Source: Minisyncoccia bacterium (GTDB taxonomy: Bacteria > Patescibacteriota > Minisyncoccia > Phycocordibacterales > UBA918). Taken from it: a DNA stretch of 64,000 nt. Location: NCBI GenBank assembly GCA_041736805.1, contig JBGSSW010000011.1, forward strand, positions 18,395 to 82,394, given 5' to 3'. Made by a program: the position numbers and the translations under genes. The first letter of the stretch is position 1. The number at the start of each line of letters is the position of its first letter. Below are positions 1,609 through 59,995 of the stretch, in pieces. Below the pieces are notes generated by a model. That model was given only the letters and a program-made list of their open reading frames with translations, was not told the DNA's origin and searched no databases.

Positions 1609-1682
1609 ATTGACAACCTGTTAGTTGTGTGTTCCCACATGCTCGATGCCGAGCTGTGACCCACAAAGCTAGCGCGTTGCAA

Positions 1683-1710
1683 AAAGAGCGGCCTCGTGCC
1701 GCTTTTTTTG
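1683..1710. terminator. bidirectional rho-independent terminator between the tRNA and the minus-strand island genes
   Basis: A-run, then stem AGCGGC-CTCGT-GCCGCT, then TTTTTTT. Confidence 0.5.
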
Positions 1711-2280
1711 CTATTTGTTCACAAACTTTGCGACTATGCGACCGTGTATTTCGTGCATCTGATCTTCGCTGAATAGCTGATCGTATCTCCAAATCTTTCC
1801 TCCAAGAGAAAAAGCTTTTAGATACGCTTCGCAATAGATCCTTGGATTAATGACCAGAATGTCATCCCGTCTCTCCCATCCAAGTGTCGATTGGTAGTCG
1901 TACTCAATCCTGTGACCCATAGATCCGAGCCACTGGTGAGCGAGAATGTTCCGCCAATTATGAATATCCTCTGCGATTAAGGAGAATTTCAGATCGTCTG
2001 TATCTCCATCAACGAATGTTTCCAAGAATTGCTTGTAGTCCTTGAACATAGAATCAGGCTTGCCGTTAGCGAAGAACACCTCGCCTATGGTGAGTGCGGC
2101 TGCGTGTACGCCAAGAAACATCAGGGATGTTTGGTAGTGAGCGGGGGTGATCCCGATCTCGTTGTTGAAGTAATTTGCAATTGAGTTGAGTAACGTTTCA
2201 ATTGCTTCGACAGGATGACTCTTGAGTCGCTCTAGTCGATGTTCTTGTGACTCCGAATTGTGCGTGCGGTTTTTTCCCAT
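1711..2280 (-). CDS. hypothetical protein with HEPN-like R-x4-H motif (DIHNWRNILAHQW)
   Basis: 189-aa ORF. The motif W-R-N-x-L-A-H resembles the HEPN RNase signature Rx4-6H and recurs in the neighbouring gene. Confidence 0.4.
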   Translation of the reverse strand: MGKNRTHNSESQEHRLERLKSHPVEAIETLLNSIANYFNNEIGITPAHYQTSLMFLGVHAAALTIGEVFFANGKPDSMFKDYKQFLETFVDGDTDDLKFSLIAEDIHNWRNILAHQWLGSMGHRIEYDYQSTLGWERRDDILVINPRIYCEAYLKAFSLGGKIWRYDQLFSEDQMHEIHGRIVAKFVNK

Positions 2281-2284
2281 ATTT

Positions 2285-3127
2285 TTAAATTATTCTGTTA
2301 TCAATTTCGTGGAAGAGGTTGTTGATCATGATAAGCCGACCTAGTGCGTCGTGATGTGGAAGCTGATTTTCGTCGCCGTGGCTAAGATTATTCCTCCACC
2401 AATGCATGATGCCCATCACCGTCAACTTAAAGCCAAGCTGTTTGTTGACCTCCTGCGGTGTGGAAAGAGTGTTGAATTTTATCTTCGGATTTTGCTCGTT
2501 GAAAACGGTAGCCATCAGATCCGGACCTTGTTTATCATGAGTGCTTGTCAGATCTTGGACAGTTTTTTCAAATCGCTCAAGCGCTTTTCGTACGGACTCG
2601 TTGATATGTCCTTCAATGAACATCTTTTTGCAGTCAGGTAGCAATGATGGGTGAAGAGTATATGCATCCAGAATCTTCTGGATGGCGATTGGTGGCGGCA
2701 CCGTTCTCGGACGTTCCTTCGGAAGATTCATTGCCAATATTTCTTTCTCTAGGTCTATATTGAGAACCTTCAGTTTCAGATAAAGCTCAAGGGCTTCAGC
2801 TTCCAATACAGGCTCACCTTTCTCGTGACGCTTCTCTATAGCCTTGGGAAGTATCTCGCGCACGAGAATCTTTATTGTCCGAGGCTTATGGCAGTACAGA
2901 TTGCGAAGAAATTCGTAGAAGGCATCTTTTTTGTTTGAGGTCTTGGTTGAGAGATATTTACCGAGACCTCGTTCTTTGGCTATTGTGGTCAATGAAAACG
3001 AGCTGCGAAATCCTGAAAGCGAGATCAGTTTACCGAGCTGTTCCGCAAGCGCACGGATTGCCTGCGCTTGTGGCGCTGTGACTATCACTCTTTTCTTTGC
3101 AACCTTTTTCTTGATTTTCTTTTTCAT
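2285..3127 (-). CDS. HEPN-like protein (Abi_C / Ymh-like C-terminal domain; motif HWWRNNLSHGDE), Lys-rich N-terminus
   Basis: 280-aa ORF. The C-terminal W-R-N-x-L-S-H-G motif matches the HEPN Rx4-6H signature. The gene abuts another HEPN-motif gene in the same orientation. Confidence 0.45.
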   Translation of the reverse strand: MKKKIKKKVAKKRVIVTAPQAQAIRALAEQLGKLISLSGFRSSFSLTTIAKERGLGKYLSTKTSNKKDAFYEFLRNLYCHKPRTIKILVREILPKAIEKRHEKGEPVLEAEALELYLKLKVLNIDLEKEILAMNLPKERPRTVPPPIAIQKILDAYTLHPSLLPDCKKMFIEGHINESVRKALERFEKTVQDLTSTHDKQGPDLMATVFNEQNPKIKFNTLSTPQEVNKQLGFKLTVMGIMHWWRNNLSHGDENQLPHHDALGRLIMINNLFHEIDNRII

Positions 3128-3130
3128 AGA

Positions 3131-3661
3131 TTATTTGGTCGTATGCACATGGAATCCGCACGCCCGGCAGAGACCATTCATATTCGTGTTACCGTTGATA
3201 TGAAATTCAAAGTTTTCCTTACCACAAACAGGGCAAACCACACGACCGCCAGTGAGTTTCGTAGCATTAATCGTGTCCAGAACATCCCGCACGTCTCGTA
3301 CGTATTTGTTCACCTGCTCTCGATCATTTAAATAACCCTGCACCCACAGATTCGTTGTGATCCGCCCCGCTGACGTTTCCTTGTAGTGGATTTTCCCTTC
3401 GTTCAAAAGCTTCTCCCAGTACTGACGCGTCTTCCCGTACTCTCTGGCGACATCACCAGAGGACATGAGTGTCGCATTGTATGGAATGTAACCTTGAGCT
3501 TCCATATTTTCGACACAAGCACGAATACCTTCCGCAAGTGCGCTTTCTTTTTCTTCTTTGGAAAACTCACCAGTCAGATCAAGACCGAGGCTTAAAGTGC
3601 CGCCACTACTTGTATTGGCGTGCCAATAGAATTTTCGCTTGTCGTCCTTGGGTGCAGACAT
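3131..3661 (-). CDS. hypothetical protein with C-terminal CxxC...CxxC zinc ribbon
   Basis: 176-aa ORF ending ...VVCPVCGKENFEFHINGNTNMNGLCRACGFHV. No other recognisable motif. Confidence 0.45.
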   Translation of the reverse strand: MSAPKDDKRKFYWHANTSSGGTLSLGLDLTGEFSKEEKESALAEGIRACVENMEAQGYIPYNATLMSSGDVAREYGKTRQYWEKLLNEGKIHYKETSAGRITTNLWVQGYLNDREQVNKYVRDVRDVLDTINATKLTGGRVVCPVCGKENFEFHINGNTNMNGLCRACGFHVHTTK

Positions 3662-3704
3662 GCCACAAGTATATTCTCATTGGTTTCTAAATGCAACCAA
3701 TATC

Positions 3705-5057
3705 CTATTCCTCCAGCAAGGTAATCTGCTTGTCGTTCAGCACTAGTCTTGATCGTAAGTGTCCCATCAGTTCACGCTTCTCCAGTGGAGTACCCTCGCG
3801 GAGTACGTACTTCGCGTACTCTCTGGTTGCAATATCATCCTCGTCAATCTGCATCTTCGGCTTGCCTTTGGTCGCCAATCGTTGCAGTCGGTTGAATCGT
3901 TTAATTTCTTCTTCAAGTTTCATCCGCATACCAAGTTCGTTGATACTCACTTTGTCGATGACCTTGAAGAGTTCCTCCACCAGTTCTTCCTCACGGATGT
4001 ACTTGTTCTTGCAGTTTCTGTCTTTTGATTTTGAGCAAGAGTAGTAGATGTATTTGGCGTTCGTGCCGTCTTTTAGTTCTTTGTATTTTTCTTGCGCTGT
4101 TATCCCTGATCCGCACATACCGCAGGTGAAGAGTTTAGTGAAGGCGAACTCTCGGTTCCCTCGCACAATCTTATCTCGCTTCAGTTGCTCATTTACTTTC
4201 TTGAACAATTCTTCAGTGATAATAGGTTCATGTGCTCCTTGGTACCAGTTGCCACTGTTCTTTGGATATTCAAATGGTCCGTAGTAGATCGGCATTTGGA
4301 GCATGCGGTATACGCCACTTAAGGTGAGTGGTCGGTTTCCTCGCGTATGGAAGTTGAGATCAAAGCGGAGCCAGTTATATACCTTGCGCCCACTCCAGTG
4401 TTCATATGCCACCTTCTCAAACATTTGCTTTACGACCGGTGCACGCTCTGGATCTATGACGATCCGACACTTCCTGTCCATCAGCTTTTGATTGAGGTAC
4501 CCGAGTGGTGCCATGCCCGGCCATAGTCCCATCTCAACTCTTGTTCGTAGTCCTCGCTTCACGTTGATACCTCGGTTGTCGTTCTCAAGCTTTGCTTGTG
4601 ATCCGAGGATCATTAGGAGGAACTTCTCGTTGGGGTTGTTCCTAAAGCTCTGTCCAAAGGTACGTATCTCATGGAGCTTTCCCGCGTCCATCAAGTCCAC
4701 AATCTTTCCGAGGTCGCCTGCGTTTCTTGATATACGGTCTGGTGCCCAGGTGAGGATGCCGTTAAACTTGTTGTCTCTTAGTTCATCTATGATCTCGTTG
4801 AAGACCGGTCGTTGCCCAGTCTCCTTGGCTGAGTGTGATTCTCGCTTCATGGTCACGATCTCCAGACCCTCTCGTTCGGCGAGTTGGAGCATCTCACTGA
4901 TTTGTGAGTCGATGGACAGCACTTGCCGTTCCTCAGATTCACTACTTTTTCTTGCGTAGAGGCAGTATTTCACCCTTACAGGGATTGCTTCTGGTTTGAC
5001 CACCATTCCATGTGGCGCTTGTATTGTGTTATTCATACAGCTACATTGATGACGCAA
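3705..5057 (-). CDS. large serine recombinase (resolvase/invertase catalytic domain + recombinase domain + zinc ribbon)
   Basis: N-terminal YARKSSESEERQ..SIDSQ motif holds the catalytic serine. LTWAPDRISRN matches the resolvase R-x-SR motif. The C-terminal CGMCG...CSKSKDRNC is a zinc ribbon. The true start may be an internal Met (5036 or 5006). Confidence 0.85.
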   Translation of the reverse strand: MRHQCSCMNNTIQAPHGMVVKPEAIPVRVKYCLYARKSSESEERQVLSIDSQISEMLQLAEREGLEIVTMKRESHSAKETGQRPVFNEIIDELRDNKFNGILTWAPDRISRNAGDLGKIVDLMDAGKLHEIRTFGQSFRNNPNEKFLLMILGSQAKLENDNRGINVKRGLRTRVEMGLWPGMAPLGYLNQKLMDRKCRIVIDPERAPVVKQMFEKVAYEHWSGRKVYNWLRFDLNFHTRGNRPLTLSGVYRMLQMPIYYGPFEYPKNSGNWYQGAHEPIITEELFKKVNEQLKRDKIVRGNREFAFTKLFTCGMCGSGITAQEKYKELKDGTNAKYIYYSCSKSKDRNCKNKYIREEELVEELFKVIDKVSINELGMRMKLEEEIKRFNRLQRLATKGKPKMQIDEDDIATREYAKYVLREGTPLEKRELMGHLRSRLVLNDKQITLLEE

Positions 5058-13917: not shown

Positions 13918-13995
13918 AATATTGAGTAAATTATAGCATCTTACGCATAATCAAAATGATGATTTAGTCACAACTTAGTAACACGTTCACAACTT

Positions 13996-15528
13996 TTACC
14001 CCACCCGCTCTTTCTTAAACTCCTCCGCATACTTTTGCACGATATTGGCTGTGTCATCCTTCTCTTCAAGGTCAAACCAGAACTTTCCGTCCACGATGTG
14101 GATGCCATACCTGAAATCTTCCTTAGCGTTCGTATGCAGATGTTCTGTAGCCATGTCGGTCAGCTTCACGAGTTCGTGATTGAGAAGCATTACCTCGTCT
14201 TTGTACGATTCAATAAGCTCGTCATACCTTTCAGTAAGATCGGTATCAAATATATCTGACGCCTGCTTCCCGAGCTTCCGGAACTCGCAGAGGGTGTTGT
14301 ATTTCTCGACAGGCTTCGCATTCTTCTCGATGAACAGAGCGAGGTTCGAGAATGACAGAATCATCTCGACCTGTTTTTTGTATTCGTGCACGAACTCCAA
14401 ATCCTCCTTGCATGCATACAAGCTCTCACCCGTGAGCATCTCCACAACTCTCATTTCGCCGAACATGGACATCTCCGCTTCTTGCCGTTTCAGTTCCTTC
14501 GCGCAAAAGAGACTCGCAAAATACTTTCTGGTTTGCTCCATCTCAGCATACCAAATAGCGAACAGCTCCTTGTGGCTTTTTTTAGTGTTGCCGTTCCAAG
14601 TATCGAAGCGGTCACTTGCAAAGAATGGTGCAAAATCTTTGGTGAACAATCCGTTATCGAGCCATGAGTGAAGTGTCTCCCTAACCACATGCTCCATGGT
14701 CACGTCGTTGCCTGTAGCGTATTCCTCTATATTTTCCAGAACTTCGTCATCGTTCCGATCCTTGCACTTGATACGCGCATCGTGAGCAACTTTATACATA
14801 ATCTCCTTGAGCGGAAGCTCGGCGAAGAAGTCACCGATCATAAAGCCGTCCTTCTCCGTGCCACTGCGCATCTTTTTAATACCTTCGTAATACATGCGAG
14901 TGAAGATGGTATCGACGAGGGTGTCTTTGTCCTTCTTGCTAATCTTTCCGCCTTTGAACATTTCATAAAGGAGCGTGTGATCTTCCAGATATTGTTTGTT
15001 GTACCCCACAGAATCATCAAGTAGGACAAGGTCTTCTCGTATTTCCAGAGGTAAGTTGAAGAAAGTGAAGGTGTGGAGGACATGGCGGTACTCGAGGTAC
15101 GTATGAGCGAGAGCAAAGGAGAGACTTTCTTCCTTGGTGATGTTGTCCTGCATTAGACTGTTCACAGGTATGTCTGTCGTCTTCTTTAGATCAGCAAGAC
15201 AGTACGTGAGTATTCGCTCGTTCCTAACCAAGGACAACTCAGCATTGGTTGCAAACATTTGTGCATCAAGACGCATGGACTGTTCCAAGCGGACAATACC
15301 GATGTATCGGTTATATTCATTGATCTTTCCTGTATCTCCAGACCACTTTTGTGTTAGGGTATGAAGCTGCGAATCAGAGAAAATACTTGTACCAGTCTTT
15401 TCTCTATGTCTATCGTTATGCACAAGTGCAGTCACCCGTTCAAGCGGGGTCATGTTTGATCGCAATAAGATGTTGTTGAGGTTTTTCATACTATCTTGTC
15501 TTCTTGAGCATACTCTCAAGAAATTCAA
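13996..15528 (-). CDS. hypothetical protein (510 aa), acidic, no recognisable motif
   Basis: Long ORF in operon with the methyltransferases. The likely start is an internal Met (MKNLNN, ~15489). Confidence 0.5.
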   Translation of the reverse strand: MNFLRVCSRRQDSMKNLNNILLRSNMTPLERVTALVHNDRHREKTGTSIFSDSQLHTLTQKWSGDTGKINEYNRYIGIVRLEQSMRLDAQMFATNAELSLVRNERILTYCLADLKKTTDIPVNSLMQDNITKEESLSFALAHTYLEYRHVLHTFTFFNLPLEIREDLVLLDDSVGYNKQYLEDHTLLYEMFKGGKISKKDKDTLVDTIFTRMYYEGIKKMRSGTEKDGFMIGDFFAELPLKEIMYKVAHDARIKCKDRNDDEVLENIEEYATGNDVTMEHVVRETLHSWLDNGLFTKDFAPFFASDRFDTWNGNTKKSHKELFAIWYAEMEQTRKYFASLFCAKELKRQEAEMSMFGEMRVVEMLTGESLYACKEDLEFVHEYKKQVEMILSFSNLALFIEKNAKPVEKYNTLCEFRKLGKQASDIFDTDLTERYDELIESYKDEVMLLNHELVKLTDMATEHLHTNAKEDFRYGIHIVDGKFWFDLEEKDDTANIVQKYAEEFKKERVG

Positions 15529-18274: not shown

Positions 18275-18982
18275 TCAGTCTCCTCGGATGACAAAGAGGG
18301 TCATGTATCCATGCCGACGAGTGTACCTTGGGATTGGATTTTTGGTCATGCCGAAAAATTGTTTCAGTCCTTCGTTGAGTTCATATTTAATGTTGCGATG
18401 GAGGCGGAAATCCCAGTGTTCTTTAGTGAGTGCACCACCGTGGTCAGCGATTGCCCGAAGCATTTCCCATTTCATGTCTGGTCGCATGGTTCGTTCATTG
18501 ACGAAGCCCATATCTTTGAAATCAAACTTCTTCGTCTGTTTACCTGGGTACGAGACACGAACAACGTGTCCATCGATAAATTGCATCTCAAGCGATTCCC
18601 ATGATGCGTTTCCGGGTAGCTGGTATGAAGCTTTCACATACTTTGTTTCAGCCGCTGGGATAGCGTCATCCACAGTGTATTCCTGAACAGATCGGTCGAG
18701 TGCGGTCATAATGAGGTCTTCGTCTGCACCCTCATAGAGAGAAGGAATGAACGGGGGCGCTATCTTTGGAACCATCTGAATTCTGCTCATCATTTCAAGT
18801 TGTGGTCGAACGCTTTCCATCACTTTATGCATATTTTCCATCGGTTTTCTCAGTGTCTCTACAAGTTTCTGAGATTGCTCGGCTGTTCTATTCAACGTCG
18901 AAAGGAACGACCCATCCGAGAAGACGGTTGTGGGTGTGTATCCATCCTTTGCTTGTTGAAGTATCAATTCGCCGACTGTCAT
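18275..18982 (-). CDS. hypothetical protein (235 aa), first gene of the block-2 operon
   Basis: ORF with no recognisable motif. Confidence 0.45.
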   Translation of the reverse strand: MTVGELILQQAKDGYTPTTVFSDGSFLSTLNRTAEQSQKLVETLRKPMENMHKVMESVRPQLEMMSRIQMVPKIAPPFIPSLYEGADEDLIMTALDRSVQEYTVDDAIPAAETKYVKASYQLPGNASWESLEMQFIDGHVVRVSYPGKQTKKFDFKDMGFVNERTMRPDMKWEMLRAIADHGGALTKEHWDFRLHRNIKYELNEGLKQFFGMTKNPIPRYTRRHGYMTLFVIRGD

Positions 18983-19235
18983 ACCTCCATATTATATCTT
19001 AAAAATTACTTCACGAAAATTGGCATTTGTTGGCATTTGGGACACACTCCAAAACGCCCTTGGTGTGTCTCATCTGTCTCATTCTCGAGAAAGAGACCCC
19101 GACCCACAAACCTCAAATTCTTCAAGGAAAAAGTGCTAGAATACCCTTATGTTGCTTGGAGCTGTGGGTACCATACCCGAGTACACCGCAGCAGTAGAAA
19201 GAAAAGGCTTGCCTGCGTACTGCTGCGGGAACCAG

Positions 19236-19305
19236 AACGATGTGAGTTTACGAACGAGTGGCAAAACAATGTTTAGACATTGTTTTGCGGGTTGAGAGTA
19301 CTTAG
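19236..19305. repeat. structured repeat family A, copy 1 (GAACGATGTGAGTTTACGAACGAGTGGCAAAACAATGT-TTAG-ACATTGTTTTGCGGGTTGAGA)
   Basis: ~88% identical to 37321–37382. It contains an 11-bp hairpin CAAAACAATGT/ACATTGTTTTG. The second copy has base changes in the stem that keep the pairing, with one mismatch. Confidence 0.6.
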
Positions 19306-19567
19306 ATTTTTATAAGCGTGCGCGACATTGTTTTCTTATGAGCTGGCGAACTATAAAACAAGAAGTACCCTTGTGGTGAAATAAAAAGCTTAGTAACTCG
19401 TGACCGCATGCGGGAGCCGCAGAGATGTCTTCTTTTTCTTCAAAAAAGAAGACTGCGAGGTGGTTTCAAGAAAGCTTAATATATTTGCAGTCGAAGACGA
19501 ATAAATATACCAAGTGGTCTGTGACCGCTAGAGTGACCTAGCTCATCTGATGAATGATTATGTACAC

Positions 19568-20452
19568 TTAAAGACTTATATGGGTGTGATTATTTTCAAA
19601 GTTGAAGGTACCTCCACACTGGGCCTTTTTTGCCAAAAGCAGCTGATGGAGTTTTTGTTCCGCAAGCAAATTTTGACCTCTGGCATTAAAGTCTACCGCT
19701 TTCGCACCGGTTCCACTTCCTCTTCCATAGTGCATAGAATTATTACTATGGCTACATGGACCACAAACGGTGTTGCCATTAGTCAAACTACATCTTGGAT
19801 TAGTTAGGTCTATAGTATATAACTGGCTTTTATCGGTTGCGGCATCTATAGCTGAATCACTCAAATAGCAATTTATCATTGTTCTTAGTCTTGGATCTTC
19901 AACTCCCACTGGTGAACCCTTATACTTTGCCATCAAGGCATTATCGTCTGTACAAGCCGCCGTCACATTGGGATCTGGAGGAGTCCCTCCCGCAGAAGGA
20001 AGTTCTAATTTGTCACCACCTTGTGGAGAAATTTGCTTCTGGCACTCAACCTGTGACCATGGACCATAACCAACCACGTTTCCATCAGCAATTCCATCTT
20101 GGTCACCATCTAGTAAACTTCGCATTATAGTATCCACCATCAGCCAGCCAGCCATAACGATTATGAGACCAATTATCGCATTCTGGAAACTACTTTTGGC
20201 GGCCTCAAGAGCAGATTGACTACCAGCAGAAGTAACTAGTCCAAAACCCGCTTTGGCCATCAAAACAGCAAAAAGTATAAATACGATTCCAAACAACCAC
20301 TTAATAATGGCATTTACCATCGATACAAAATCGCACGCACTACAATCTGCCCCGTTACACGGCACAAAGTTCCCAGTCTGTGCTTGCACGATGTCTGCTG
20401 GCAAGGCTGCCAGTAGTAAAATCGGAACGATAAATAAAATTATTTTTCTCAT
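19568..20452 (-). CDS. secreted protein: signal peptide + VirB2/TrbC-like two-TM pilin-like module + C-terminal LAS/M15-like zinc peptidase-like domain
   Basis: Signal peptide MRKIILFIVPILLLAALPADIVQA, then a CxxxxCxxC segment, then two TM helices (AIIKWLFGIVFILFAVLMAKAGFGLVTSAG ... IIGLIIVMAGWLMVDTIM). The C-terminal SMHYGRGSGTGAKAVDF ... NNHTHISL has an H..D...HxH arrangement. Confidence 0.55.
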   Translation of the reverse strand: MRKIILFIVPILLLAALPADIVQAQTGNFVPCNGADCSACDFVSMVNAIIKWLFGIVFILFAVLMAKAGFGLVTSAGSQSALEAAKSSFQNAIIGLIIVMAGWLMVDTIMRSLLDGDQDGIADGNVVGYGPWSQVECQKQISPQGGDKLELPSAGGTPPDPNVTAACTDDNALMAKYKGSPVGVEDPRLRTMINCYLSDSAIDAATDKSQLYTIDLTNPRCSLTNGNTVCGPCSHSNNSMHYGRGSGTGAKAVDFNARGQNLLAEQKLHQLLLAKKAQCGGTFNFENNHTHISL

Positions 20453-21571: not shown

Positions 21572-21614
21572 GCGTCGGTACGGTAGCGGGAAGCGGAGGC
21601 AGACTGTAAGGCTG
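21572..21614 (+). repeat. partial duplicate of the 5' half of tRNA-Tyr (first 10 nt identical, ~75% over 40 nt)
   Basis: GCGTCGGTAC...GGCAGACTGTAA aligns with the start of the intact tRNA-Tyr ~190 bp downstream. Confidence 0.45.
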
Positions 21615-21768: not shown

Positions 21769-21851
21769 GCGTCGGTACTCAAGCGGTCAACGAGGGCAGA
21801 CTGTAAATCTGCTGACTTATGTCTACGAAGGTTCGAATCCCTCCCGGCGCA
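21769..21851 (+). tRNA. tRNA-Tyr (GTA), type II
   Basis: Acceptor GCGTCGG/CCGGCGC with discriminator A. Anticodon stem GCAGA/TCTGC, loop CTGTAAA. T-loop TTCGAAT. CCA not encoded. Confidence 0.85.
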
Positions 21852-21860
21852 CTTTTGCGG

Positions 21861-21890
21861 AAAACACCCATAGGGGTGTTTTCTTTTTTT
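21861..21890. terminator. rho-independent terminator after tRNA-Tyr
   Basis: AACACCC-ATAG-GGGTGTT followed by TTCTTTTTTT. Confidence 0.6.
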
Positions 21891-21998
21891 CAGAAGTGTG
21901 CCGAGAGGGATTCGAAGGCCGGAGCCTCATGTGAATTTCGGAGCGTAGCGGAGAAAGAGAGAGGCGAGGCAGGGTCTGGAGTACTTAGATTTTTTTTA

Positions 21999-22226
21999 CT
22001 AAATAATCTTTATTTGCTTCAGCTGCTTCCATGTGCTCGACGGCTGTGCTTCAGCATGGACTTCTGCTGCTTCCTTATGCACCTCTGCAGCTTCCAAATG
22101 CACATCAACAACTGTTTCTCGCGCTTCCTCAACTTTGTTCTCTGCATTTTGCACTTTTACTTCAACGCCTACTACTTTATTATTTTCTGTCACTGGGCAT
22201 ACATCCTTTTTAGAATCATTAGTCAT
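21999..22226 (-). CDS. possible small repeat-containing protein (75 aa; EAAEVHKEAAEVHAEA)
   Basis: ORF only, containing an internal tandem peptide repeat. No other support. Confidence 0.25.
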   Translation of the reverse strand: MTNDSKKDVCPVTENNKVVGVEVKVQNAENKVEEARETVVDVHLEAAEVHKEAAEVHAEAQPSSTWKQLKQIKII

Positions 22227-35898: not shown

Positions 35899-36258
35899 AT
35901 GTCAGACCGTCATCTTCGTGTAGAATCCTTGATTAGAGAACTAGTAGCTAGCTTTATTCAGCAAGAGGCAAATACTGATCCTTTGATTACAGTTACTCGA
36001 ACTTCGACTTCTCCTGATTATCGTCGGGTAACAATTTTCTTTACTACTATTCCCGATGGCCGCGAAGAAGATGCTTTAAATTTCTTGAAGCGTTGCGGAA
36101 GTGAACTTCGCGGTTACATCAAAAAGAAGAGTAATCTGAAAATAATACCCTTTATTGAGTTCAGTGTTGATTATGGAGAACGTCACAGGCAAGACATCGA
36201 TGTTATTGCCAGAGAAATAGAAGACCAAGCAAATAAATCGTCTGAGGGCAGAGTCTAA
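35899..36258 (+). CDS. rbfA: ribosome-binding factor A
   Basis: RbfA-like sequence (RVESLIRELVASFI...VTRTSTSPDYRRVTIFFT) directly downstream of infB, the conserved gene order. Confidence 0.75.
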   Translation: MSDRHLRVESLIRELVASFIQQEANTDPLITVTRTSTSPDYRRVTIFFTTIPDGREEDALNFLKRCGSELRGYIKKKSNLKIIPFIEFSVDYGERHRQDIDVIAREIEDQANKSSEGRV

Positions 36259-36308
36259 TACTTTTGTTTTAGTCGAAAAAAATGCTAAAGTAGTGCGTAC
36301 AGAAATTA

Positions 36309-36382
36309 AGTCCTGGTGGCGAAGTGGTTAACGCTGCGGTTTGCAAAACCGCCATACGTGGGTTCAACTCCCACCCAGGACT
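36309..36382 (+). tRNA. tRNA-Cys (GCA)
   Basis: Acceptor GTCCTGG/CCAGGAC with discriminator U. Anticodon stem GCGGT/ACCGC, loop TTGCAAA. Confidence 0.8.
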
Positions 36383-36570
36383 CAAGTGTTTGCCGCGGCA
36401 AACACGAGTTCTGGGTGGGAGTTGAAAAGCGAGCGATGTGAGGTGCTTTTCATTAAGCAACCGAACCAGCGAGCTATGGTCAAGCAAATAAGTTTATTTG
36501 TGAGTCATCAGACGAAACAAATAACCATGAAAGTGACCGACCCCCATTAGCAGAGATAATATATTGCTGT

Positions 36571-36654
36571 GCCCAGATGGTGTAATTGGTAGCCACGCAA
36601 GACTTAAAATTTTGTGGTCGCAAGGCCGTGCGGGTTCGATTCCCGCTCTGGGCA
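36571..36654 (+). tRNA. tRNA-Leu (TAA), type II
   Basis: Acceptor GCCCAGA/TCTGGGC with discriminator A. Anticodon loop CTTAAAA. Long variable arm. T-arm CGGGTTCGATTCCCG. Confidence 0.8.
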
Positions 36655-36778
36655 CCTAAAATTAAAGACCTTATTCCTTTTAGGATAGGGTCTTTAATTT
36701 TAGGCGAGGGAGTCGAAAAGCTTTTGAGATAGATTGACTGAAAGGAAATATATCCAAAAGGTGTACCGAACATGTAAT

Positions 36779-36800
36779 GTTCGATTCCCGCTCTGGGCAC
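36779..36800 (+). repeat. 22-nt exact duplicate of the tRNA-Leu(TAA) 3' end (GTTCGATTCCCGCTCTGGGCAC), att-like scar
   Basis: Identical to 36634–36655, located 125 bp downstream of the intact tRNA. Confidence 0.6.
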
Positions 36801-36845
36801 AATAATAAAAGATGACGGACAAATTGTCCGTCATCTTTTATTATT
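36801..36845. terminator. long perfect palindrome / bidirectional terminator (AATAATAAAAGATGACGGACAA-A-TTGTCCGTCATCTTTTATTATT)
   Basis: ~22-bp perfect inverted repeat with A/T-rich flanks. Confidence 0.55.
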
Positions 36846-36898
36846 GCTAGCGGAAATCGAAGCCTGATTGAGCTTGATTATGAGCTTGCGAAATAATC

Positions 36899-36935
36899 AA
36901 GCCAATTGGGATACTGCTTCTGTAAGAAGCGATTC
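36899..36935. repeat. repeat family B, copy 1: AGCCAATTGGGATACTGC + hairpin GCTTCT-GTAA-GAAGC
   Basis: The same 18-mer recurs at 37427. Each copy is followed by a hairpin with a different stem sequence but the same GTA(A) loop. Confidence 0.5.
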
Positions 36936-37153
36936 CCAGCAAGGTGGCCAGAGCGAGAATCGAAAAGCGGAGCAATGTTAACTTGTGAGCCAGTGTACCA
37001 GGACCCCGGAACACTTAGTAAATTTGAGCCGAAGACTAAAAATATACTTAGTCACGCGCGACCTATTTATTTTTATACATCTTAATTAGTCCTTGCAAAG
37101 CAATCCCCCTAACCTTGTTTAAAGAAAATATATATTGTACACTTCTTTCCATT

Positions 37154-37226
37154 GCGCCCTTAGCTCAGCTGGTAGAGCAGCTCCCTCTTAAGGAGAAGGT
37201 CCAAGGTTCGATCCCTTGAGGGCGCA
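37154..37226 (+). tRNA. tRNA-Lys (CTT)
   Basis: Acceptor GCGCCCT/AGGGCGC with discriminator A. D-arm GCTC-AGCTGGTA-GAGC. Anticodon stem GCTCC/GGAGA, loop CTCTTAA. T-arm CAAGG-TTCGATC-CCTTG. Confidence 0.85.
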
Positions 37227-37233
37227 CTAGAGC

Positions 37234-37279
37234 AAAACAACAAGACCATTATTCAATTGAATAATGGTCTTGTTGTTTT
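37234..37279. terminator. perfect 21-bp palindromic terminator after tRNA-Lys (AAAACAACAAGACCATTATTC-AATT-GAATAATGGTCTTGTTGTTTT)
   Basis: Perfect inverted repeat flanked by A/T runs. A second hairpin, GTACCTGCC-CCGA-GGCAGGTAC, follows at 37281–37302. Confidence 0.65.
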
Positions 37280-37320
37280 AGTACCTGCCCCGAGGCAGGT
37301 ACGGCTCTAGTGCGAACTGG

Positions 37321-37411
37321 AACGATGTGAGTTTGCGAACGAGTGGTAAAACAGTGTCTACACAATGTTTTACGGGTCGAGAAAATTTCTGAAAGAAATT
37401 ATTCGTGACCA
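37321..37411. repeat. structured repeat family A, copy 2, fused to a GGGTCGAGAAAATTTCTGAAAGAAATTATTCGTGACCA module
   Basis: ~88% identical to 19236–19305 with stem changes that keep the pairing. The 3' module is near-identical to 37836–37873. Confidence 0.6.
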
Positions 37412-37426
37412 CATGTGCGCCTCAAT

Positions 37427-37460
37427 ATAGCCAATTGGGATACTGCCCTCGTAGAGGGAG
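37427..37460. repeat. repeat family B, copy 2: AGCCAATTGGGATACTGC + hairpin CCCTC-GTA-GAGGG
   Basis: See copy 1 at 36899. Confidence 0.5.
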
Positions 37461-37651
37461 ATACCCCTTGAGGTATCAGTTTAAGTCACTGACTAACAAA
37501 TATACTTAGTAACTTGTGTCAGACGTTATACTTAATGCCCACGAACAGTTGACTTTTAACTCGTGACTACAAACATATCTATGTATATTTAATTATTTAA
37601 ATTCATCCTCTCGCCATCTCCTCATTTTATGATATACTCTTCCCCACACCC

Positions 37652-37733
37652 GCGTGGGTGGCGAAATTGGTAGACGCGTTAGTCTTAGGAACTAATAGGG
37701 TAACCTGTGGAGGTTCAAGTCCTCTCCCACGCA
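37652..37733 (+). tRNA. tRNA-Leu (TAG), type II
   Basis: Acceptor GCGTGGG/CCCACGC with discriminator A. Anticodon stem TTAGT/ACTAA, loop CTTAGGA. Long variable arm. T-arm GGAGG-TTCAAGT-CCTCT. Confidence 0.8.
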
Positions 37734-37835
37734 CAAATCGACAGACTCAGAAATTTTGTTTCTGAGTCTTTGTCGTTTGTAGTGAGGGAGAGGACTTGAA
37801 AGACGGAGCCGGGGCCCCTTTGGGCCGGCGAGTCC

Positions 37836-37873
37836 GGGTCGAGAAAATTTCTAAAAGAAATTATTCGTGACCA
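37836..37873. repeat. GGGTCGAGAAAATTTCTAAAAGAAATTATTCGTGACCA module, copy 2 (37/38 identical to 37374–37411)
   Basis: Direct sequence comparison. Contains the hairpin AATTTCT-AAA-AGAAATT. Looser relatives (GGGTYGAGAGTACTTA ... TAGTAACTCGTGACC) occur at 19296, 21963 and 59814. Confidence 0.6.
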
Positions 37874-37974
37874 AGTCTTTTTCTCACAAAAGCTATCTAC
37901 TAATTAGCTCAAATTCCTCCGTCATTGAGACAGTATACTCATTGGCTAAAATTTTTCCTTATTCTAAATTATTA

Positions 37975-39012
37975 TTACGCAACCGACCGTAATCTTGCCT
38001 TCTTAAACTGTGCTCCCCTGAAATAACGATTGTAATAACGAGCAAAACGTTTTTTTAAGCCAGTCGGAGCCTTGTCACTTAATTCACACCATCTTGAACA
38101 ATAACCTTGTCTTTTACTAACACAATCTTCACAGCCCAAGAAAAGAACGTGACAAATTTGATTTTTACAATGATAGTGTTTATCACTCTTAGTGGTCCGA
38201 CAAAGATGGCAGTGAGAAATTATTTCGACCCCAATAGTCTCCCCTAGTCTTTCATCAAAAACAAAGTTCTTACCTTTAAATTTATTTGGTAGGCCTTCTC
38301 TTTCGACTTGATGTTTATAATCAATTACTCCCCCTCTAAGGTGTTTTACATTGCTGTAGCCTTGGTGCTTGAGCCAAGCACTAGCTTTTTCGCAGCGAAT
38401 TCCCCCTGTGCAGTATAAAGCAATTTTTTTATTCTTGTGGATTTTCAAGAGCTCAGGTACCACCTTTAATTCTTCACGAAAAGTATCCACATCTGGAGTA
38501 ACAGCATTTTCAAAGTGGCCAATTTCACTTTCGTAAGCATTTCTCATATCTATCACTACCGCTTCTGGATCATCAATATATTTATTCATTTCCGCTGCCG
38601 TCAGGTACTCTCCAGTGTTAGTAACATCAAAACTATCATCATCAAGACCGTCGGCGACAATCTTTGGACGGACCTTAATGGTAAGTTTATAGAAAGATGG
38701 TAAATCACCCTCTTCGACGGCAATTTTATACGGAACACCGGCTAATTCAGGTTGAGCGTGCACCCAGTTGTCAAACTTTTCCCAATTTTCCTTCGGTACA
38801 TTCATTTGGGCATTGATACCTTCGTGAGCAATATAGATTCTACCTAAACAACCCATTTCAGTCCAAGCCAGCAAAAGACGCTGTCTAAACCCTATAGGGT
38901 CAGCGATTTTTACGTAGCGGTAAAAAGACAAGGTGGTACGAGGACGAACATCACCTAAAGCCGCTTGTCTTTTTTCACTTCTTGGCCGGAGATCTTTGGT
39001 AATAGCGGGCAT
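37975..39012 (-). CDS. trhO: rhodanese-related sulfurtransferase / tRNA uridine(34) hydroxylase TrhO (YceA family)
   Basis: Rhodanese active-site loop YCTGGIRCEKA, UPF0176 N-terminal region, and a Cys-rich C-terminus. Confidence 0.7.
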   Translation of the reverse strand: MPAITKDLRPRSEKRQAALGDVRPRTTLSFYRYVKIADPIGFRQRLLLAWTEMGCLGRIYIAHEGINAQMNVPKENWEKFDNWVHAQPELAGVPYKIAVEEGDLPSFYKLTIKVRPKIVADGLDDDSFDVTNTGEYLTAAEMNKYIDDPEAVVIDMRNAYESEIGHFENAVTPDVDTFREELKVVPELLKIHKNKKIALYCTGGIRCEKASAWLKHQGYSNVKHLRGGVIDYKHQVEREGLPNKFKGKNFVFDERLGETIGVEIISHCHLCRTTKSDKHYHCKNQICHVLFLGCEDCVSKRQGYCSRWCELSDKAPTGLKKRFARYYNRYFRGAQFKKARLRSVA

Positions 39013-57931: not shown

Positions 57932-58003
57932 GGCCCCATCGTCTAACGGCTAGGACACTTGGTTCTCATCCAAGAAATCGGAGTTCGATTCTCCGTGGGG
58001 TCA
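57932..58003 (+). tRNA. tRNA-Glu (CTC)
   Basis: Acceptor GGCCCCA/TGGGGTC. Anticodon stem CTTGG/CCAAG, loop TTCTCAT. T-arm CGGAG-TTCGATT-CTCCG. Confidence 0.75.
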
Positions 58004-58011
58004 CAAAATAC

Positions 58012-58049
58012 AAAAGACACATTCCCAAAGAATGTGTCTTTTGTATTTT
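58012..58049. terminator. rho-independent terminator after tRNA-Glu
   Basis: AAAAGACACATTC-CCAAA-GAATGTGTCTTTT followed by GTATTTTG. Confidence 0.6.
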
Positions 58050-58321
58050 GTGAGGAAGCAGATTATTGCATAGGAAAGGCCTATGCCAAGCAGGCCTATG
58101 CCAAGCAAAATACTGAACTAAATAGTCAGTCGTACTAGCGTAGACAAAATTTCTAACATTAAAAATGTTTGACTGTATCGCCTCCACTAAAAACGGCGGT
58201 CGGTAAAACTGTTTGATCAAGAGCCCAGTCTCTGTCCAGTGAAGGTCTAATTGAATGATAGTAAAAAATTAAAACTCCTATTACTAAAATATAAAAAAGT
58301 TTGCGCATATGATTTTTTAAG

Positions 58322-59444: not shown

Positions 59445-59609
59445 AAAGCTAGTAGCGGTTCGCAAGTGTCCCACACTTACTTACCATTTCCATTTGCAGG
59501 GCACCATCGTAGAGTACAAATGACCGATTAGCTCAGCTGGTAGCGGTTCGCAAGTGTCCCACACTTACTTACCATTTCCATTTGCAGGGCACCATCGTAG
59601 AGTACAAAT
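59445..59609 (+). repeat. two tandem ~88-bp units upstream of tRNA-Val; each full unit begins with the first 22 nt of tRNA-Val (GACCGATTAGCTCAGCTGGTAG)
   Basis: Unit 2 (59522–59609) starts with a 22-nt match to 59610–59631. Unit 1 (59445–59521) is a truncated copy that retains only a degraded remnant of the tRNA 5' segment (...AAAGCTAGTAG...), followed by the same 66-nt non-tRNA body. Confidence 0.7.
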
Positions 59610-59682
59610 GACCGATTAGCTCAGCTGGTAGAGCGCTACATTGACATTGTAGAGGCCACAAGTTCAAGTCTTGTATCGGTCA
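59610..59682 (+). tRNA. tRNA-Val (GAC)
   Basis: Acceptor GACCGAT/ATCGGTC with discriminator A. D-arm TAGCTCAGCTGGTAGAGCG. Anticodon stem CTACA/TGTAG, loop TTGACAT. T-arm ACAAG-TTCAAGT-CTTGT. Confidence 0.8.
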
Positions 59683-59691
59683 CACAAGTAT

Positions 59692-59726
59692 AAAAACGCC
59701 TAGTCTTTTAAGACTAGGCGTTTTTA
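59692..59726. terminator. rho-independent terminator after tRNA-Val
   Basis: AAAAA-CGCCTAGTCT-TTTA-AGACTAGGCG-TTTTT. A second hairpin, GGAAGCAAA-CTG-CTTTGCTTCC, follows. Confidence 0.65.
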
Positions 59727-59995
59727 TAGGAAGCAAACTGCTTTGCTTCCGCACTTGTGTGACAGGCGGAAACATCTTTTCTTCCCTTTCATCAGAAAGA
59801 AAAGGGTTGCGCCGGGGTCGAGAGTACTTATGAAAGCAGTGAATTAGTAACTCGTGACCACAAGTAATTCAACCTAATGTTGCTTGCTGCCTCTGTGACA
59901 GCCATAGATAAAAATATATTAAAATGCAAATAATTTGCATTTTAATATAATTTTATAGACACTAGCTGCGTTCTCTTGTATAGTGCGAACTCAAT

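Follow-up and report, generated by a model that had tools for sequence, protein, structure and literature searches.

The stretch analysed here, 64,000 nucleotides (nt) of contig JBGSSW010000011.1 from the Minisyncoccia bacterium assembly GCA_041736805.1 (hereafter the window), carries a family of hairpin-rich non-coding elements, most of which lie directly behind tRNA genes. Two of them came to attention as a pair of similar repeats: copy 1, at the edge of a variable gene block (block 2), and copy 2, which adjoins tRNA-Lys. The 18 kb between the copies are occupied by housekeeping genes, among them those for ClpB, G6PD, 6PGD, 6PGL, a cysteine desulfurase-like enzyme and IF-2, and such genes over 19.4-37.3 kb rule out one island with the two copies as its ends. 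The repeat itself is the 5' part of body A, a core of ~90-180 nt in a larger element whose other parts are copies of the 3' end of the neighbouring tRNA.

In a repeat search of the window, 19229-19297 and 37314-37382 were 86% identical over 69 ungapped nt. The original prediction had described a 70-nt match of ~88% reaching 19305; the repeat is real, its similarity ends at 19297, and the true start of copy 1 lies one base earlier than was given. Since the similarity ends after 69 nt, the pair is not part of a larger segmental duplication. The window contains the 27-mer GAACGATGTGAGTTTRCGAACGAGTGG at 19235 and 37320 and nowhere else, against an expectation of 0 from 100 shuffles. The internal hairpin, HP3, has 12 bp and not the 11 bp first proposed (arms GCAAAACAATGT/ACATTGTTTTGC in copy 1 and GTAAAACAGTGT/ACAATGTTTTAC in copy 2), while the compensated change and the single mismatch that had been reported are both present: copy 1 has C-G at pair 2 and A-T at pair 9, where copy 2 has T-A and a G·A mismatch, respectively. 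In a relative, L007, a third HP3 lies behind tRNA-Leu(taa); its pair 9 is G-C, and copy 1 thus differs from it by two pairs, both fully compensated. The GGGTYGAGA ... TCGTGACC module is present downstream of both copies, as had been noted.

Starting from a seed of ten copies, nhmmer found body A about 20 times, and RNAfold returned the same two-domain fold in 22 copies on the tRNA-sense strand, with a summed minimum free energy of -778 kcal/mol for the plus strand against -638 kcal/mol for the minus strand; the plus strand folds better in 21 of the 22. The first domain, D1, is a G·A-rich hairpin. Its outer helix is short and covaries (GAC/GUC, GCC/GGC, ACC/GGU or AGC/GCU); above this helix come GNA/GA internal loops and, at the apex, a hairpin that varies. 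In the Lys subtype, D1 is the 27-mer, in which, as read by eye, three 5'-GA-3'/5'-GA-3' steps are split by 2-bp helices and the loop is UUUG, UUUA or CUUG. HP3 is an optional hairpin between the two domains, found in copy 1, copy 2 and the Leu(taa) copy of L007, and absent from the L007 tRNA-Lys orthologue. The second domain, D2, is a long hairpin, GGUCG-A-GAGUACUUAG ... apex GUC-GNA-GAC ... CUUAGUAACUC-G-UGACC, with a short form in copies 2 and 3 and in relative L032. The 70-mer originally taken as the unit is thus D1, the optional hairpin and the 5' foot of D2.

Covariation in D2 was assessed on an alignment of 17 copies and 22 pairs, in comparison with slid partners and with 500 shuffles. 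Standard pairs fill 85.2% of the cells, against 34-40% with the partner slid; 12 of the 22 pairs are altered on both sides, and none of the 500 shuffles reached the observed values. At the base of D2, 12 copies have G·U and 4 have A-U, and G·T outnumbers A·C by 24 to 13. This strong covariation shows that the folded core is under selection, in agreement with the earlier proposal of a structured, non-coding sequence with selected pairing.

A covariance model built on D2 (R1) was used to search 238 kb, that is, the window and the loci of ten relatives. It found 23 distinct copies, seven of them in the window (19287-19405, 19461-19526, 36475-36538, 37000-37063, 37372-37410, 37834-37872 and 59813-59859), with reverse-strand shadows ~50 bits lower. 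All 21 copies that adjoin a tRNA gene (Cys, Leu(taa), Leu(tag), Leu(caa), Lys, Val or Trp) lie on the strand of that tRNA; copies 1 and 1b, the latter a degenerate second body A next to copy 1, have no tRNA beside them. A degenerate body A behind tRNA-Tyr is a weaker match, detected by nhmmer only. Where two members had been predicted, the family has at least eight in the window; the prediction that it is lineage-specific and repeated, with one copy bordering a variable block and the other adjoining tRNA-Lys, is borne out, and the relatives carry the element with its structure conserved. The D2 model can be used to annotate these elements.

In the spacers behind tRNA genes, in the window and in the relatives, body A sits within a unit of recurring order, a link to tRNA 3' ends that the original prediction did not contain. 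Read 5' to 3' on the tRNA strand, the unit begins with the tRNA 3' end itself (T), taken from the T-loop, or from 2 nt before its end, onward. Next come a palindrome that is often perfect, in some cases with another small hairpin behind it, and the same tRNA 3' end in inverted form (I); the structured body and a direct copy of the tRNA 3' end (D) complete the unit. I usually ends in ..TYGAA, the complement of the first T-loop bases. D begins halfway along the T-loop, except at Lys and Val, where its start lies 2 nt short of the end of the tRNA. The inverted repeats reported upstream of both copies (19186-19196/19218-19228 and 37222-37233/37303-37314) are real; what had been described as a separate feature is the tRNA's own 3' end paired with its inverted copy. 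At copy 2, T consists of the last 6 nt of tRNA-Lys and 6 nt of trailer, followed by a perfect 46-nt palindrome (HP1) and a hairpin (HP2); the L007 orthologue has the same architecture, with stems that have changed and still pair. The hairpin upstream of copy 1 holds the position of the T/I stems, with no intact tRNA upstream of it.

The copying of the target was tested by searching for the last 24 nt of 28 tRNAs downstream of each, with shuffled downstream sequence and upstream sequence as controls. Inverted copies at +20 to +75 scored 10-21 in ~16 of the 28 tRNAs, and direct copies at +120 to +215 scored 13-22 in ~10 of them; shuffle maxima were mostly ~9-11 (14.5 in one case), and upstream scores did not exceed 9, with one exception. 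The direct repeat varies from 7 to 23 nt between units and is a perfect 22-23-nt repeat of the tRNA 3' end at Leu(tag) of L007. The T-arm of tRNA-Cys varies between species (AACTCCCAC, GACTCTCAC, GATTCCCGC), and I and D vary with it. Folding of I-body-D from L007 Leu(tag) with DNA parameters gives a three-way junction with a 15-bp closing I:D helix, at -36.6 kcal/mol against -19.1 for shuffles (z -5.4). On this model, I pairs with D and the unit is predicted to fold into a three-way junction whose closing helix is the host tRNA's own sequence.

The slot between I and D may also hold body B (GGTTAGTCAGATATTTT..AAAATATCGACAACC...) or body C (GATTGAGCTWGATT..AATCWAGCCAATTGGGATA...), both unrelated in sequence to body A. 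As B and C occupy the same slot, the scaffold is more general than body A. Behind tRNA-Glu (57932-58060) there is a palindrome only, with no body, and its outer stem takes in the last 5 nt of the tRNA (TCACA...TGTGA); the palindrome may be this architecture in a minimal or empty form, comparable to tRNA-Trp of relative L029.

These results bear on the simplest explanation, a repetitive extragenic palindromic (REP)- or terminator-like repeat without specific link to tRNAs, or a chance or recent local duplication. Several copies, an intergenic location and richness in hairpins would agree with it, as would the position of copy 1 between two minus-strand genes, downstream of the pilin gene and upstream of a 235-aa open reading frame (ORF). 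The target-copy, covariation and covariance-model results already contradict this explanation, which we regard as highly improbable. The flanks are derived from the target, the 21 D2 copies besides 1 and 1b abut a tRNA in fixed orientation, the two copies share 69 nt only with no segmental duplication, and in our own reading of the sequences there is no GTAG-type REP signature. T-runs are absent after HP3 and D2, and the suggestion of a terminator is not upheld: HP3 is A/T-rich, is followed by CGGGTYGAGA and is not called by a scan for rho-independent terminators.

Comparison with relatives shows turnover of the units. The closest homologues of the flanking rhodanese-like TrhO/UPF0176 protein come from bins that carry the labels Paceibacteria, Nomurabacteria or Patescibacteria, and the relatives were reached through such flanking proteins: through TrhO for L007 (86% identity), L008 (82%), L024 (80%), L025 (80%), L027 (78%) and L032 (75%), and on the copy 1 side through the SLT-pilin protein for L029, L030 and L031 (62-67%). 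The body is absent behind tRNA-Leu(tag) in L008 and behind tRNA-Trp in L029, and present at their orthologues. Units also stack: behind tRNA-Leu(taa), L027 has the order T-palindrome-I-B-D-palindrome-I-A-D-palindrome, which contains three copies of the tRNA end, and the window has a similar array. Body A in this L027 array is identical to that behind tRNA-Cys of L027 itself at 112 of 115 positions, while the palindromes and I differ. In L032, D has the tRNA-Leu(taa) allele of L025 and not that of its own tRNA. The interval between TrhO and RbfA ranges from 1.2 to 6.5 kb with varying cargo genes, and the syntenic Cys-Leu-Lys-Leu cluster contains single inverted tRNA genes, Leu(tag) or Lys, in L007 (11101-11183), L024 (12042-12115) and L032 (11920-12002), which suggests recombination between inverted copies of the element.

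Individual copies are mosaics. D1 and HP3 of copy 1 resemble the tRNA-Lys copy (86%), its D2 flanks match L007 Leu(tag) at 61 of 63 positions, and the short D2 is common to the Lys and Leu(tag) copies of the window (37/39). The apical insertion in D2 of copy 1 (19314-19375) holds ACATTGTTTT, a second copy of the 3' arm of HP3 (19277-19286). Contigs assembled from short reads of the same sample break off precisely at 19405 and at 37705.

The surroundings of copy 1 differ from those in the relatives. L029 and L031 have the gene order tRNA-Tyr, SLT-pilin, pilin, tRNA-Trp, MiaA, and L031 has a body A behind tRNA-Trp. In the window, the same pilin genes are followed by copy 1b, copy 1, a 5-kb block with two DNA methylases (block 2) and unrelated genes. 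There is no tRNA-Trp at the window position (19406-19567) between pilin and miaA where L029 and L031 have it, and the tRNA-Trp of the window genome must lie elsewhere in the genome. Copy 1b matches the tRNA-Trp-linked body of L031 at 90 of 112 positions overall and at 45 of 49 in D1, and is the orthologue of that body. From the order of genes in the window and in the relatives, copy 1 therefore stands at a synteny breakpoint, on top of a former tRNA-Trp unit.

The left border of block 2 contains a sequence resembling the 3' half of D2, with CTTAGTAACACGTTCAC at 13973-13990 comparable to CTTAGTAACTCGTGACC at 19388-19405. This resemblance weakly suggests that repeats flank block 2 together with copy 1. 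The proteins of the block (a 510-aa ORF called as 485 aa, and others of 235, 124 and 64 aa) have no matches in Pfam or PHROG, and those of 485 and 235 aa have no sequence matches in the PDB. The 485-aa protein (13996-15453, minus strand) has ~110 homologue clusters, all in Paceibacteria-like bins; its AlphaFold2 model is mostly helical (predicted local distance difference test score 89.7), with a best Foldseek hit in the PDB at E 0.12. It is a clade-specific family with, according to the model, a fold that has no known relative in the PDB. Block 2 was therefore rejected as autonomous parent of the elements, its proteins showing no recombinase signal.

Could the units be scars, i.e. decayed attachment (att) sites and arm remnants of full-size islands or prophages with a tyrosine or large serine recombinase, repeatedly integrated and deleted? 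The conserved motifs would then be former binding sites of recombinase and accessory proteins. Integration of this kind classically leaves direct repeats of tRNA 3' ends (PMC4383910); genes for large serine recombinases adjoin tRNA-Ser in the window and run into tRNA-Tyr in L030, and the spacers between tRNAs hold variable cargo genes. We nevertheless consider this explanation improbable, because independent deletions would not leave the same 100-180-nt body at 8 tRNAs in more than 6 genomes, and relics would neither preserve hairpins through compensatory change nor remain 97% identical across species, as D2 of copy 1 and that of L007 do. The inverted copy I is foreign to known tRNA-att scars, and no full-size element ending in body A was found, block 2 being a weak candidate only.

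The main alternative, which we hold to be rather unlikely, is a structured RNA useful to the host and co-transcribed with the tRNA cluster. By this account, the tRNA-like I:D helix would mimic the acceptor/T-stem and let RNase P and RNase Z free the body from a polycistronic precursor, and the released two-hairpin RNA (D1 with its tandem G·A, and D2) would act in trans or insulate the neighbouring tRNAs during folding. The confinement of the tRNA-adjoining copies to the tRNA-sense strand is in its favour, together with the better folding of the plus strand, the conserved G·U at the base of D2 and the excess of G·T over A·C. Tandem G·A loops, GNRA- and CUUG-type loops and conserved unpaired nucleotides beside covarying stems point the same way. 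Furthermore, only one palindrome in 36200-38000 has the properties of a terminator, which makes read-through plausible, no plus-strand promoter was found in front of the bodies, and orthologous copies are kept across species. On the other side, stable hairpins of single-stranded DNA have C(GNA)G loops and sheared G·A pairs just as typically; several of the palindromes that separate tRNA and body form long perfect stems with T-runs, at which transcription should stop or pause; and T:I pairing would compete with folding of the tRNA. An RNA function also leaves unexplained why the helix must copy the local tRNA, as well as the arrays with three tRNA ends, the foreign allele in D of L032 and the empty orthologous sites. 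An RNA role and a mobile element are not mutually exclusive.

The reading that we favour, and to which we give an even chance, takes each unit for a non-autonomous element whose folded core is under selection and whose insertion target is the 3' end of a tRNA gene. It draws on the architecture, the covariation, the linkage to tRNAs, the differences in occupancy, the arrays and the breakpoint, all of them observed; that the element moves, that an enzyme drives it, and that either DNA or RNA is its active form, we infer. Site-specific recombination, either within the T-loop (TTC|RA) or close to the discriminator at ..C|AC, would let a unit in, and this entry would restore a working tRNA 3' end (T) and push the old end out (D), in the manner of tRNA-integrating islands, for which regeneration of the 3' end and displacement of a direct copy are the general rule (PMC4383910). 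Units could then stack in tandem or be lost through T x D recombination, cores could be exchanged among copies by gene conversion or transposition, and the copies might act as breakpoints for inversions and rearrangements. A trans-acting factor, probably encoded elsewhere, would recognise the folded core, possibly together with the T:I and I:D stems, on the tRNA-sense strand, as single-stranded DNA or as transcript. Copy 1 would be a unit placed on top of the decayed tRNA-Trp-linked unit, at the breakpoint that joins the 5-kb methylase block.

Several points weigh against this reading. In the window and the relatives' loci, the units contain no recombinase, transposase or other gene and have none as a consistent neighbour, and the block adjoining copy 1 has two methylases and proteins without recombinase signature. 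It is hard to see how a mobile unit would bring along a tRNA end that differs at each of 8 targets. Judged by the L027 pair, movement or conversion may involve the core only, and gene conversion alone could account for high identity within a genome. Orthologous copies are conserved across species in which TrhO is only 75-86% identical, which fits a function at the level of the host as well as mobility. No excision products or circles were observed. Three scans of viral contigs gave no homologues, other matches being chance ones within coding sequence, and the search for the core in genome and metagenome collections, made with exact 20-mers only, gave chance matches in unrelated high-GC DNA.

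If the favoured reading holds, a compact gene-less family with a covarying fold, present at many tRNA 3' ends, copying its target in both orientations and marking a breakpoint, would be informative, and it could explain cargo gain and rearrangement at tRNA clusters as well as the breaks of short-read assemblies there. Patescibacteria have tiny genomes, single-copy tRNA genes and few recognised mobile elements. More tentatively, and with some doubt, the units might be assigned to a new class of element, a three-way junction whose closing helix is templated by the host tRNA 3' end and which accepts at least three unrelated cores (A, B and C). Such a class could work by single-strand integration of a hairpin attachment site, as in CTXphi and integron attC but aimed at tRNA T-loops, a route that would suit bacteria living on imported single-stranded DNA; alternatively, mimicry of tRNA might hijack RNase P and RNase Z and release a mobile structured RNA. 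A core acting as single-stranded DNA would extend hairpin-att recombination beyond dif and integrons, and a core acting as RNA would be a new structured RNA family tied to tRNA maturation.

Among known systems, islands and cis-mobilizable elements (CIMEs) in tRNA genes share with these units the regenerated tRNA 3' end and the displaced direct copy at the far end, which is perfect or near-perfect in the best cases (L007 Leu(tag), L027 and Leu(taa) of the window). Tandem accretion at one tRNA, a tRNA cluster as hotspot with variable cargo and, for CIMEs, the lack of a recombinase inside the unit are also alike. The units described here differ in being only ~150-300 nt long, in having the same core at 8 or more different tRNAs, in the inverted target copy that pairs with T or D, and in the covarying two-hairpin fold that takes the place of protein-binding arms. 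The units have no gene inside, and the large serine recombinases lie elsewhere, with no link to body A. The attP(+) hairpin of CTXphi, used by XerCD at dif, and integron attC are folded single-strand attachment sites, and the likeness to them is one of architecture only. Common features are inverted target-like copies that can fold into a stem mimicking the duplex target, a strand-specific structure with conserved shape and variable sequence, and tandem arrays. Here the target is a tRNA end, a dif-like or R''/R' (RYYYAAC/GTTRRRY) consensus is absent, and the palindrome ends are TTCRA.. / ..TYGAA, unlike the attC boxes.

Miniature inverted-repeat transposable elements (MITEs), REPs, bacterial interspersed mosaic elements (BIMEs) and the palindrome elements of the insertion sequences IS200/IS605 are likewise small, non-coding, hairpin-rich, multi-copy and lineage-specific, occur at rearrangement breakpoints, and can insert by a short conserved motif (..TTC| or ..C|AC) with a hairpin at the element end. 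In our units the terminal repeats are copied from the local target, and insertion is strictly beside tRNAs in fixed orientation. I and D differ at each locus and the direct repeats vary in length, unlike MITEs, whose terminal inverted repeats belong to the element and whose target-site duplication is short and of fixed length. Units of ~100-180 nt with two domains, confined to tRNA flanks, do not match REPs or BIMEs, which are imperfect palindromes of 20-40 nt with a conserved 5' tetranucleotide, scattered between genes throughout the genome. No transposase or REP-associated tyrosine transposase (RAYT) was seen in the window or the relatives' loci. The core ends at a conserved GUGACC followed by the target-derived D, an order like the scaffold and guide of omega-RNA; D pairs with I, and no tnpA or tnpB was seen in the loci.

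RNAs processed from tRNA precursors include the tRNA-snoRNA (small nucleolar RNA) dicistrons of plants, mascRNA and the small RNAs from bacterial 3' external transcribed spacers (3'ETS). These resemble our units in having a structured RNA directly downstream on the same strand, bounded by a helix like that of a tRNA, to which RNase P or RNase Z could be recruited. In the units, by contrast, the helix reproduces the neighbouring tRNA end exactly, once inverted and once direct, and units stack and come and go. The tandem interspaced guide RNA (TIGR) stem-loop arrays of candidate phyla radiation (CPR) bacteria have an adjacent Tas (Nop-domain) gene and dual-spacer units of ~36 nt (PMC12045711). 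Variable palindromes, short conserved motifs, the CPR lineage and paired segments matching both target strands are common to both systems, whereas our units measure ~100-180 nt and lack the box C (CCA)/box D (UG) spacing. TIGR-Tas is ruled out by this difference in size and by the gene lists of all loci, in which no Tas or Nop-domain gene is adjacent.

In Rfam 15, only tRNAs of the window pass the gathering threshold, and at E<=10 the regions 18950-19600 and 36200-38000 give hairpin noise far below threshold; the tRNA-linked arrangement flanked by I and D was not found in Rfam or in the literature searched. Other identities were tried and rejected. The apex of the Cys subtype, UGUGAGUCGUAAGACGAAAC, resembles the CUGAUGA-stem-GAAAC of a hammerhead ribozyme and lacks C3 and A6, with no Rfam match. 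GTGACC or TTAGTAAC was considered as a promoter and discarded, as GTGACC-16-GATAAT fits only the spacer between tRNA-Cys and tRNA-Leu; minus-strand AATAAT sites occur in short-D2 copies only. The ACTTAGT 'direct repeats' are in fact the two strands of D2. Scans against viral contigs gave nothing or chance matches and no case for a phage origin, and the architecture gives no support for an IS110 bridge RNA, a retron, a group II intron or an integron. GC skew was uninformative for assigning the lagging-strand template. The features of the window are collected in Table 1.

Table 1 Elements and component features in the window (positions counted from its first nucleotide)
Feature	Position	Strand	Composition	Evidence
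Left border of block 2	13964-13990	+	TTAGTCAC..CTTAGTAACACGTTCAC, like the 3' half of D2	resemblance only
Copy 1, hairpin	19186-19233	+	T-like arm CCGCAGCAGTA 19186-19196; inverted arm TACTGCTGCGG+GAACC 19218-19233	sequence
Copy 1, D1	19234-19261	+	contains the 27-mer	G·A-rich hairpin
Copy 1, HP3	19261-19288	+	12 bp, loop TTAG	changes compensated relative to 37346-37373 and L007
Copy 1, D2	19289-19405	+	GGGTTGAGAGTACTTAGA...CTTAGTAACTCGTGACC, apical insertion of ~55 nt	covariance model 43.7 bits, E 1.3e-6
Copy 1b	19406-19526	+	degenerate second body A	nhmmer E 0.0011; covariance model E 1.6e-9
tRNA-Tyr element	21857-21999	+	hairpin; 21-nt I 21896-21916; degenerate body A ending GGGTCTGGAGTACTTAGA	inverted score 16 against shuffle maximum 9.5; nhmmer E 0.0063
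tRNA-Cys element	36384-36547	+	palindrome; I 36407-36426; Cys-subtype body A 36427-36538; D 36539-36547	
tRNA-Leu(taa) array	36656-37063	+	palindrome; I; body B; full 22-nt direct copy of the tRNA 3' end 36779-36800; palindrome; I; body C; I; degenerate body A 36965-37063	
Bodies B/C	36718-36778, 36862-36940, 37422-37473		also in L008, L024, L027, L029 and L032	sequence reading
tRNA-Lys(ctt)	37154-37227	+		
Copy 2, entry structure	37222-37318	+	T 37222-37233; HP1 37234-37279; HP2 37281-37302; I 37303-37318	
Copy 2, body A	37319-37410	+	D1 37319-37346; HP3 37346-37373; short D2 37374-37410	
tRNA-Leu(tag) element	37735-37891	+	hairpin 37740-37774; I 37782-37800; D1 37801-37835; D2 37836-37872; D 37873-37891 (decayed direct copy)	
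tRNA-Val element	59679-59866	+	T; HP1; HP2; I 59753-59763; D1; D2 59816-59859; D (ACAAGTA)	

Other tRNA genes of the window show features of their own. At the 5' end of tRNA-Val, an 88-nt tandem duplication (59447-59534 / 59535-59622, 99%) places a copy of approximately the first 22 nt of this tRNA 86 nt upstream of the real gene. Some 200 nt upstream of tRNA-Tyr, 43 nt (21572-21614) are 77% identical to the 5' half of the gene (21769-21811); this segment is not called by ARAGORN and, judged by its sequence, looks like a pseudo-tRNA fragment. Directly downstream of tRNA-Ser, the last gene of a four-gene minus-strand block (1609-5057) encodes a large serine recombinase (3705-5057) with Resolvase, Recombinase and Zn-ribbon domains, similar to the recombinase whose gene runs into tRNA-Tyr in L030.

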